Shown piece after piece: positions 14,742 through 15,073 of a stretch of 20,979 bases of DNA. The translations under genes were made by a program, and so were the position numbers. The DNA comes from Chlamydiales bacterium (GTDB taxonomy: Bacteria; Chlamydiota; Chlamydiia; Chlamydiales; JBDQID01): positions 1 to 20,979 of the forward strand of contig JBLFWS010000048.1 of the NCBI GenBank assembly GCA_047611865.1, written 5' to 3'. Numbering within the stretch: position 1 is the stretch's first letter; each line of letters starts with the position of its first letter. The notes beneath the pieces were generated by a model that was given only the letters and a program-made list of their open reading frames with translations, was not told the origin of the DNA and made no database searches.

Positions 14742-14908
14742 TAGTGCACCGTCAAAATTGAATTTGTAGGTATCTTCACTGATCATTTATCCTCTGGTCT
14801 CACATTCGATCTCAGCAACATCCCAATGTTTGACTTCGATCTCCATGCGAAACCAGAAGAAAAAATCTCAGTAAATATACCCACAAATTCAATCTTGACA
14901 GAGCACTA
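14742..14908. mobile_element. Fold-back MITE-like element A (163 bp between TA dinucleotides)
   Basis: Arms co-linear without gaps for 66 nt from 14740 (53/66 complementary); ends (C)TAGTGC...GCACTA(G). Confidence 0.75.
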
Positions 14909-15073
14909 GGTCGTGTATTAAAATTACGGAACGCTGCTTCTGGAGCCTTTTTCAGTACTTTTAAATTGTACTAGGCTCACCTACTTATCTAAGTATGGAG
15001 AGCCTCATACAATTCAAAATCACAAAAAAATGCCCTCAAAATCAGACATTCCCTAATTTTAATACACGACCTA
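14907..15073. mobile_element. Fold-back MITE-like element B (163 bp between TA dinucleotides)
   Basis: Perfect 20-bp terminal inverted repeat TAGGTCGTGTATTAAAATTA (14907-14926/15054-15073); complementarity continues to the centre; a second copy of the end sequence occurs at 6674-6689. Confidence 0.8.

Follow-up and report, generated by a model that had tools for sequence, protein, structure and literature searches.

How do two fold-back elements of exactly the same length, despite unrelated sequences, come to lie end to end in the stop codon of a single gene, and what could have moved them there? The window considered here is the whole stretch of DNA analysed, 20,979 nucleotides long. Element A (positions 14744-14906; ends GTGCAC...GAGCAC; GC content 0.39) is flanked by a TA dinucleotide at 14742-14743 and by another at 14907-14908, and the latter directly precedes element B (14909-15071; GC content 0.37), which is closed by a third TA at 15072-15073. 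Both elements are MITE-like and measure 163 bp. The first TA is read as the left target-duplication copy of A, corresponding to the TA of the stop codon in the empty site, the middle one as both the right duplication of A and the left duplication of B, and the last one as the right duplication copy of B, which also supplies the first two bases of a stop codon on the minus strand. Successive TAs are twice 165 bp apart, a spacing that is independent of how the element ends are defined. The layout TA-A-TA-B-TA with two elements of 163 bp, as given in a preliminary description of this DNA, is correct to the base.

Pairing from the ends to the centre, also described beforehand, is found in both elements. 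Indeed, the gapped arm identity reaches 61/84 in A and 64/84 in B (73-76%), and the ends of B, counted with the flanking TA, match perfectly over 20 nt and at 24 of 25 positions overall (96% complementary over the outer 25 nt). Folded as single-stranded DNA, A has a minimum free energy (MFE) of -32.9 kcal/mol (shuffles -10.95 +/- 2.42; z -9.07) and B one of -37.2 kcal/mol (z -11.21), values equalled by none of 200 shuffles in either case. A scan of the whole window, whose GC content is 0.42, for close inverted repeats returned only three loci of such size, namely A, B and a further element called C. The possibility that A and B are distant relatives was rejected, as their best local alignment scores 23 (shuffles 17.2 +/- 2.3), a score reached by 7 of 300 shuffles, with aligned parts that are A-rich and out of register. 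Little common sequence is thus left beyond the hexamer AAAATT, located at positions 11-16 in A and 12-17 in B, in agreement with what had been proposed.

The gene ending at this locus (15071-16198, minus strand) encodes a putative sugar O-methyltransferase of the NanM type, a protein of 375 aa matching TIGR04371 "putative sugar O-methyltransferase" (E 3.1e-67; 227 bits for a cut-off of 44) and without a match in Pfam. Its stop codon TAG (15073-15071) takes T and A from the TA at 15072-15073 and G from the complement of the last base of B. Deleting positions 14744-15073 yields ...GTACC-TA-AGCC..., read on the minus strand as GCT TAG, and the earlier statement that removal of both elements restores this reading is therefore confirmed by the sequence itself. 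Preservation of the stop, claimed at the same time, is borne out by an alignment of 12 sequences including the methyltransferase and 11 homologues, in which the C-terminus falls in the same column in 5 of the 11 homologues and within -2 to +7 residues in all of them. The nearest relative (P0002) is 86% identical and is also 375 aa long. As the protein ends where its relatives end, the stop stands at its native position, and the 330 bp beyond it are added DNA which did not truncate the gene.

On the other side of the double insertion, a convergent gene (12714-14645) is closed by a terminator-like hairpin of 12 pairs followed by a T run (14661-14690, plus strand), and A and B are placed between this hairpin and the methyltransferase stop. 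The window also carries housekeeping genes for LeuRS, RNase R, a rhodanese, DUF502, HolC, YbeY, a CorC-type transporter and RNase Y, together with a small basic protein assigned to TIGR04137 "Chlam_Ver_rRNA" (8208-8366, plus strand; E 1.2e-25; 89 bits for a cut-off of 50), the name of which suggests an origin of the contig in the Chlamydiae/Verrucomicrobia lineage. A protein of 623 aa encoded at 18650-20521 (plus strand) belongs to no Pfam or NCBIfam family. Its look-alikes in the Atlas are weak, with TM values of 0.41-0.45 for PI3/PI4-kinase-like folds and feature-based values of 0.92-0.93 for LepB_N/Sca4 clusters; they point, as a lead only, to a possible lipid-kinase-like protein from a bacterium living inside cells.

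A and B are probably two different TA-duplicating MITEs that were mobilised in trans and stacked via a common TA. The ancestral site would have read ...GTACC-TA-AGCC..., with its TA belonging to the TAG stop codon of the methyltransferase gene. A first element would have entered this TA, and a second one would have entered one of the two resulting TA copies. With both elements beginning with G and ending with C, every joint would read C-TA-G, and a fresh CTAG/TA target would thereby be offered beside each resident element, making stacking possible. Likewise, wherever a TA-duplicating element with G...C ends enters the TA of a stop codon, be it TAG or TAA, a TAG would be left, together with a new C-TA-G at either end of the element. 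Thus, the recreation of C-TA-G at the joints by the G...C ends accounts for both the stacking and the intact stop codon. The proposal that such elements stack into arrays holds for this single locus, and the joints recreating the CTAG/TA target provide a simple cause for it.

Other element ends found elsewhere in the window lend partial support to mobility. A solo B-type terminus, consisting of TA followed by GGTCGTGTATTA, is located at 6676-6694 on the plus strand, 37 nt upstream of the DUF502 start, and matches B at 17 of 19 positions. The window contains three exact copies of the 14-nt terminus of B (TA plus 12 nt), one at each end of B and one at 6676, bringing B-type termini to three in 21 kb. 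By an arithmetic estimate, an additional exact 14-mer would arise by chance in 2 x 20,979 positions with a probability of about 1.6e-4. The solo terminus includes an exact match of 16 nt, with a local score of 32 against a shuffle maximum of 29 (0/200). A search of the whole window allowing up to 3 mismatches gave no partner end for it. ISY100 frequently inserts by one end only in vitro (PMC2170065), and such an event would be a possible origin of the solo end. Regarding A, whose mobility is presumed, no terminus of its type is present in the window besides its own two ends.

The left flank of A (14726-14741) matches the right end of B at 11 of 16 positions, which is the top value among the 2,551 TA sites that are not B termini. 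Considering this flank as a decayed B end was not retained, because 220 of 300 shuffles do as well in a free local alignment, and matches of 11/16 also arise by chance for the ends of A. The flank could be a decayed fourth terminus, the mark of a target preference or a chance resemblance.

As a separate observation, a motif CTT(C/G)CTAGATTACC... is present three times in the window (6692-6718, 7920-7946 and 14205-14229), with 72-76% identity over 25 nt. Two of the three copies stand immediately upstream of genes, and the copy at 7920 resembles a promoter of the form TTGCTA-N18-TATACT.

Element C is a third, unrelated MITE, located at the 5' end of the same methyltransferase gene. Its body of 201 bp (16214-16414; 16205-16423 with the flanking repeats) carries perfect terminal repeats of 15 bp (GGCGTTGTTGCATAA), folds with a z of -7.99 and has on either side (16205-16213 and 16415-16423) one copy of a perfect 9-bp direct repeat, CTCTCCTTT. 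This repeat is the complement of AAAGGAGAG, the ribosome-binding site of the methyltransferase gene, 6 nt before the ATG. The insertion of C duplicated the ribosome-binding site, one copy of which is kept beside the gene. Its GGC ends and 9-bp duplication would fit the IS903 group of the IS5 family. Given this unambiguous third MITE, more than one family of active mini-transposons is present in the organism, in agreement with PMC11602168, according to which the majority of MITE-carrying genomes hold several kinds of them.

The positions of these elements do not support a tendency to home to gene ends, as had been suggested for A and B. Indeed, the sole other B-type terminus stands 37 nt upstream of a start codon, and the third MITE lies in a ribosome-binding site. 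Since TA is included in two of the three stop codons (TAG and TAA) and insertions outside open reading frames survive, homing is unnecessary, and the pattern of insertions is that expected from selection filtering them in a compact genome. The notion of a length-constrained family fares no better, being founded on two elements next to a third MITE of 201 bp. The equal length of A and B is most likely a coincidence.

What kind of elements are A and B, and which enzyme could have moved them? Bacterial MITEs are smaller than 200 bp and A+T-rich, have TA termini and generate target duplications, and their transcripts pair the 5' end with the 3' end in long stem-loops (PMC2229807). A and B share several of these generic traits, being small, non-coding and A+T-rich, with inverted ends and a stem-loop. 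The same source gives long stem-loops between both ends as a trait of bacterial MITEs, so that the claim that A and B are unlike ordinary MITEs is not supported for bacterial ones. Their designation as non-autonomous hairpin elements is upheld, as both are non-coding, bounded by TA and built of inverted repeats. Insertion at TA with duplication of this dinucleotide is a trait of the IS630 family, and its elements can transpose with 24-30 bp of each end; within this family, ISY100 inserts almost exclusively at TA, which it duplicates (PMC2170065).

The enzyme that would have mobilised A and B is most likely a TA-duplicating DDE transposase of the IS630/Tc1-mariner type, a proposal for which the TA duplication is the sole basis. 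An IS630-associated composite transposon is reportedly transposed preferentially to the TA of 5'-CTAG-3'. The 16 open reading frames scanned in the 21 kb of the window include no transposase family, in accordance with the statement that the mobilising enzyme is absent from it; this is a weak test, as the enzyme would act in trans. In the IS5 family, some groups make 2-4-bp duplications. The same mechanism could have been driven by an IS5-family transposase of a group generating 2-4-bp duplications of the CTAG/TA type. The joints of A and B read CTAG, and the neighbouring element C, with its GGC... ends and its 9-bp duplication, indicates that IS5-type enzymes may be present. However, a 4-bp CTAG duplication suits A and not B, whose left joint reads CTAG and whose right joint reads CTAA. 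The 2-bp TA model, which suits all three joints without any mutation, is thus simpler, even if TA flanks alone cannot separate a duplication from the sequence of the element. With no transposase in the window, neither family is favoured by a gene, and the involvement of an IS5-type enzyme appears rather unlikely.

Several known systems can be compared with the preferred reading of A and B as TA-duplicating MITEs mobilised in trans. RUP (repeat unit of pneumococcus) and MITEEc1/ERIC (IS630-linked in ISfinder) share with A and B a short, non-coding, A+T-rich body, inverted ends and a TA on both sides. RUP and ERIC-type MITEs insert at TA, and a transposase of the IS630 family is believed to mobilise them in trans (PMC2229807 and PMC11602168). 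They differ in length, with 107 bp for RUP and 127 bp for ERIC versus 163 bp for A and B. ERIC is further set apart, because neither A nor B has a blastn match in 5,426 genomes of E. coli, which carry ERIC. No cognate IS with matching ends is known for A and B. ISY100, a member of the IS630 family within the Tc1-mariner superfamily, inserts by cut-and-paste into TA with a 2-bp duplication (PMC2170065), but such elements are autonomous, about 1 kb long and provided with a transposase gene, whereas A and B are without one.

The Correia/NEMIS elements of Neisseria are also TA-bounded inverted-repeat elements (PMC2229807). They are co-transcribed with their neighbours and form hairpins that RNase III cleaves, and promoter hexamers can be present in them (PMC2229807 and PMC10969869). 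They may thus serve as a model for the action of A and B in a 3' untranslated region and at a promoter-like joint. The likeness to Correia elements is one of description; these pair mainly via their 24-26-bp ends, whereas pairing in A and B extends through almost the entire element, and the host phylum differs, as the contig of A and B carries the Chlamydiae/Verrucomicrobia small basic protein TIGR04137. Rickettsia palindromic elements (RPE) are about 150 bp long and palindromic, and several families of them occur together in an intracellular bacterium (PMC10969869). RPE sit in frame inside genes, whereas A and B stand just outside an open reading frame. A likeness to RPE lies in the open frame of 54 codons found in A, but this frame is without relatives.

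Searches for further copies returned no complete second B and no second A in the collections examined, and no empty site was encountered. By blastn, A and B gave nothing significant against plasmids, phages and the E. coli genomes mentioned above, and neither positions 12000-17000 of the window nor element C had a match in plasmids. For the 40-nt ends of A and B, every match in plasmids had E >= 0.5 and began away from the terminus. With the 19-letter terminus of B, only two loci were retrieved from genome contigs, both being chance matches in Flavobacterium, when about 17 chance matches were expected by arithmetic. Both were rejected as copies of B. The first (L001) lies inside an open frame of 1,064 codons and lacks a partner end; the second (L002), a match of 20 nt just upstream of a start codon in DNA of 33% GC, also lacks one.

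Element A (14745-14906, plus strand) has one frame open through all of its 54 codons, and its mirror frame on the opposite strand starts with a similar peptide, C[TS]VKIEFVGIFT. The frames of both elements were used as queries for mis-called open reading frames over other element copies. The 54-aa frame of A had no candidates among proteins of 29-95 aa; among longer proteins, three candidates shared words with it and none reached E <= 10, and in the Atlas its best score was 0.76, without any usable relative. The 44-aa frame of B had a single match (P0032), a tandem-repeat translation of 1,370 aa with 12 weak stretches, which was judged to be due to chance. A literature search for the end sequences of A and B gave no description of them, one text match being taken as chance, and a search for MITEs in the Chlamydiae/Verrucomicrobia lineage gave none either.

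The two elements also have a strand asymmetry in common. The minus strand corresponds to the sense of the methyltransferase mRNA, in which A and B would constitute the 3' untranslated region, each forming a hairpin with a duplex some 70 base pairs long. As RNA, A has an MFE of -93.0 kcal/mol on the minus strand and -58.3 kcal/mol on the plus strand, and B has one of -88.2 and -64.0 kcal/mol, respectively. The sense RNA therefore folds 24-35 kcal/mol better than the antisense, whereas the control element C is nearly symmetric (-73.4 kcal/mol on the minus and -66.7 kcal/mol on the plus strand). The G.U pairs follow the same line, with 8 in A and 7 in B on the minus strand and none on the plus strand, versus 5 on the minus and 6 on the plus strand in C. 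The minus strand thus holds all 15 wobble pairs of A and B, and with equal odds for either strand (p=0.5), 15/15 on one named strand has a probability of 3e-5, rising to 1.6e-3 when p=0.65. In a strand comparison of DNA folds, the bias goes in the same direction (minus versus plus, A -44.9 vs -31.0 and B -48.3 vs -35.3). The mRNA-sense segment of 427 nt running from the stop codon to past the terminator (14650-15076) folds at -209.3 kcal/mol (shuffles -99.2 +/- 5.3; z -20.65; 0/100).

Such features may be read in another way, which sharpens the earlier idea of a length-constrained family. A and B could be members of a class united by its architecture despite unrelated sequences, in which length and fold, instead of the sequence of the ends, would be read by the mobilising enzyme or by a function at the RNA level. 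The traits of the class would be the length of 163 bp, the TA-bounded G...C ends, the AAAATT near positions 11-17 and a near-perfect pairing, via G.U/G.T wobbles, of one strand only. Selection would then come from the machinery that mobilises the elements or from a role of the sense RNA in 3' untranslated regions. The identical lengths of two unrelated sequences speak for it, as do the wobbles confined to one named strand, the better folding of that strand as both RNA and DNA in each element and the symmetry of the control. As to the origin of the asymmetry, the perfect outer 20 pairs of B, together with its imperfect interior, are in favour of a property of a family over local decay. If A and B are ordinary MITEs, their equal length and the same strand bias of their mismatches have to be left as an unexplained coincidence.

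However, the comparison was made post hoc on two elements, and neither the solo B terminus nor the 201-bp element C shows such a constraint. The strand bias of the contig could by itself yield the asymmetry, the plus strand being G-poor in 39 of 40 segments of the contig. The GC skew amounts to -0.18 in intergenic DNA, to -0.58 and -0.02 at four-fold sites of plus-strand and minus-strand genes, respectively, and to -0.28 in A and -0.23 in B themselves; the G-poor strand also encodes 11 of the 14 large genes. Moreover, the ten 1x1 mismatches of the minus strand are all free of C. A one-sided loss of C on this strand accounts for its absence, unlike selection for pairing. The wobble asymmetry was consequently not kept as proof of selection at the RNA level, being weakened by both the skew of the contig and the C-free mismatches, and the skew may explain part of the folding asymmetry. 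A class recognised by its architecture is unlikely on the whole.

In a further alternative, the hairpins would be immobile, locus-specific structured RNA modules of the 3' untranslated region, acting as stabilisers or RNase III sites, with merely incidental TA boundaries. This would agree with a sense RNA folding far better than the antisense and with the lack of any other copy of A in all searches. On the other hand, a further B-type terminus is present between other, unrelated genes at 6676, both elements have clean TA boundaries and G...C inverted ends, and no U run follows either hairpin. No Rfam family matches A or B at its gathering score, the best sub-threshold match having 32 bits versus 93. 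Across positions 14600-16500, with E up to 1, Rfam gave 11 matches, of which 10 are to far-sub-threshold models of plant or animal miRNA precursors and reflect generic long hairpins, and the remaining one is FsrA over the terminator hairpin. Immobile modules are quite unlikely. As for an assembly artefact in the form of palindromic mis-joins, the window is a whole metagenome contig, but mis-joins give perfect palindromes, unlike the arms seen here with their gapped identity of 73-76%. Moreover, both neighbouring genes are complete, converge on the elements and include a normal terminator, and the same protein is recorded on three contigs, making such an origin highly improbable.

Mobile elements of the kind preferred here may act on the transcript that carries them. 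Transcripts containing Correia elements are cut by RNase III, and ERIC elements have effects at 3' gene ends (PMC10969869). By analogy with both, we infer that the hairpins of A and B would alter the processing or the stability of the methyltransferase mRNA. Each end of A also carries an outward TTGAC(A/G) hexamer, 8-13 nt inside, one of them in the promoter-like site and the other at 14755-14726 on the minus strand. The promoter-like site (14895-14924, plus strand) spans the joint of the elements, with TTGACA in the right end of A, TAAAAT in the left end of B and a spacing of 18 nt. Judged from its match to the consensus alone (11/12), the joint is a possible hybrid promoter directed antisense into the methyltransferase gene.

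A and B are thus likely to be newly found examples of known TA-duplicating bacterial MITEs, with an arrangement that follows from their G...C ends; the equal length and the folding bias towards one strand are two oddities that a single locus cannot explain. If the architecture-based alternative were true, it would point to a class of mobile or regulatory hairpins recognised by their shape. If the ordinary reading is true, its value is modest but real, as it reveals that an uncultured bacterium from the Chlamydiae/Verrucomicrobia lineage contains several families of MITEs. A and B would provide a worked example of how TA-duplicating elements with G...C ends enter a stop codon harmlessly and invite adjacent insertions. 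Mini-transposons located exactly at the ribosome-binding site and at the stop codon of one gene would illustrate the narrow limits that selection sets on insertions where the genome is compact.
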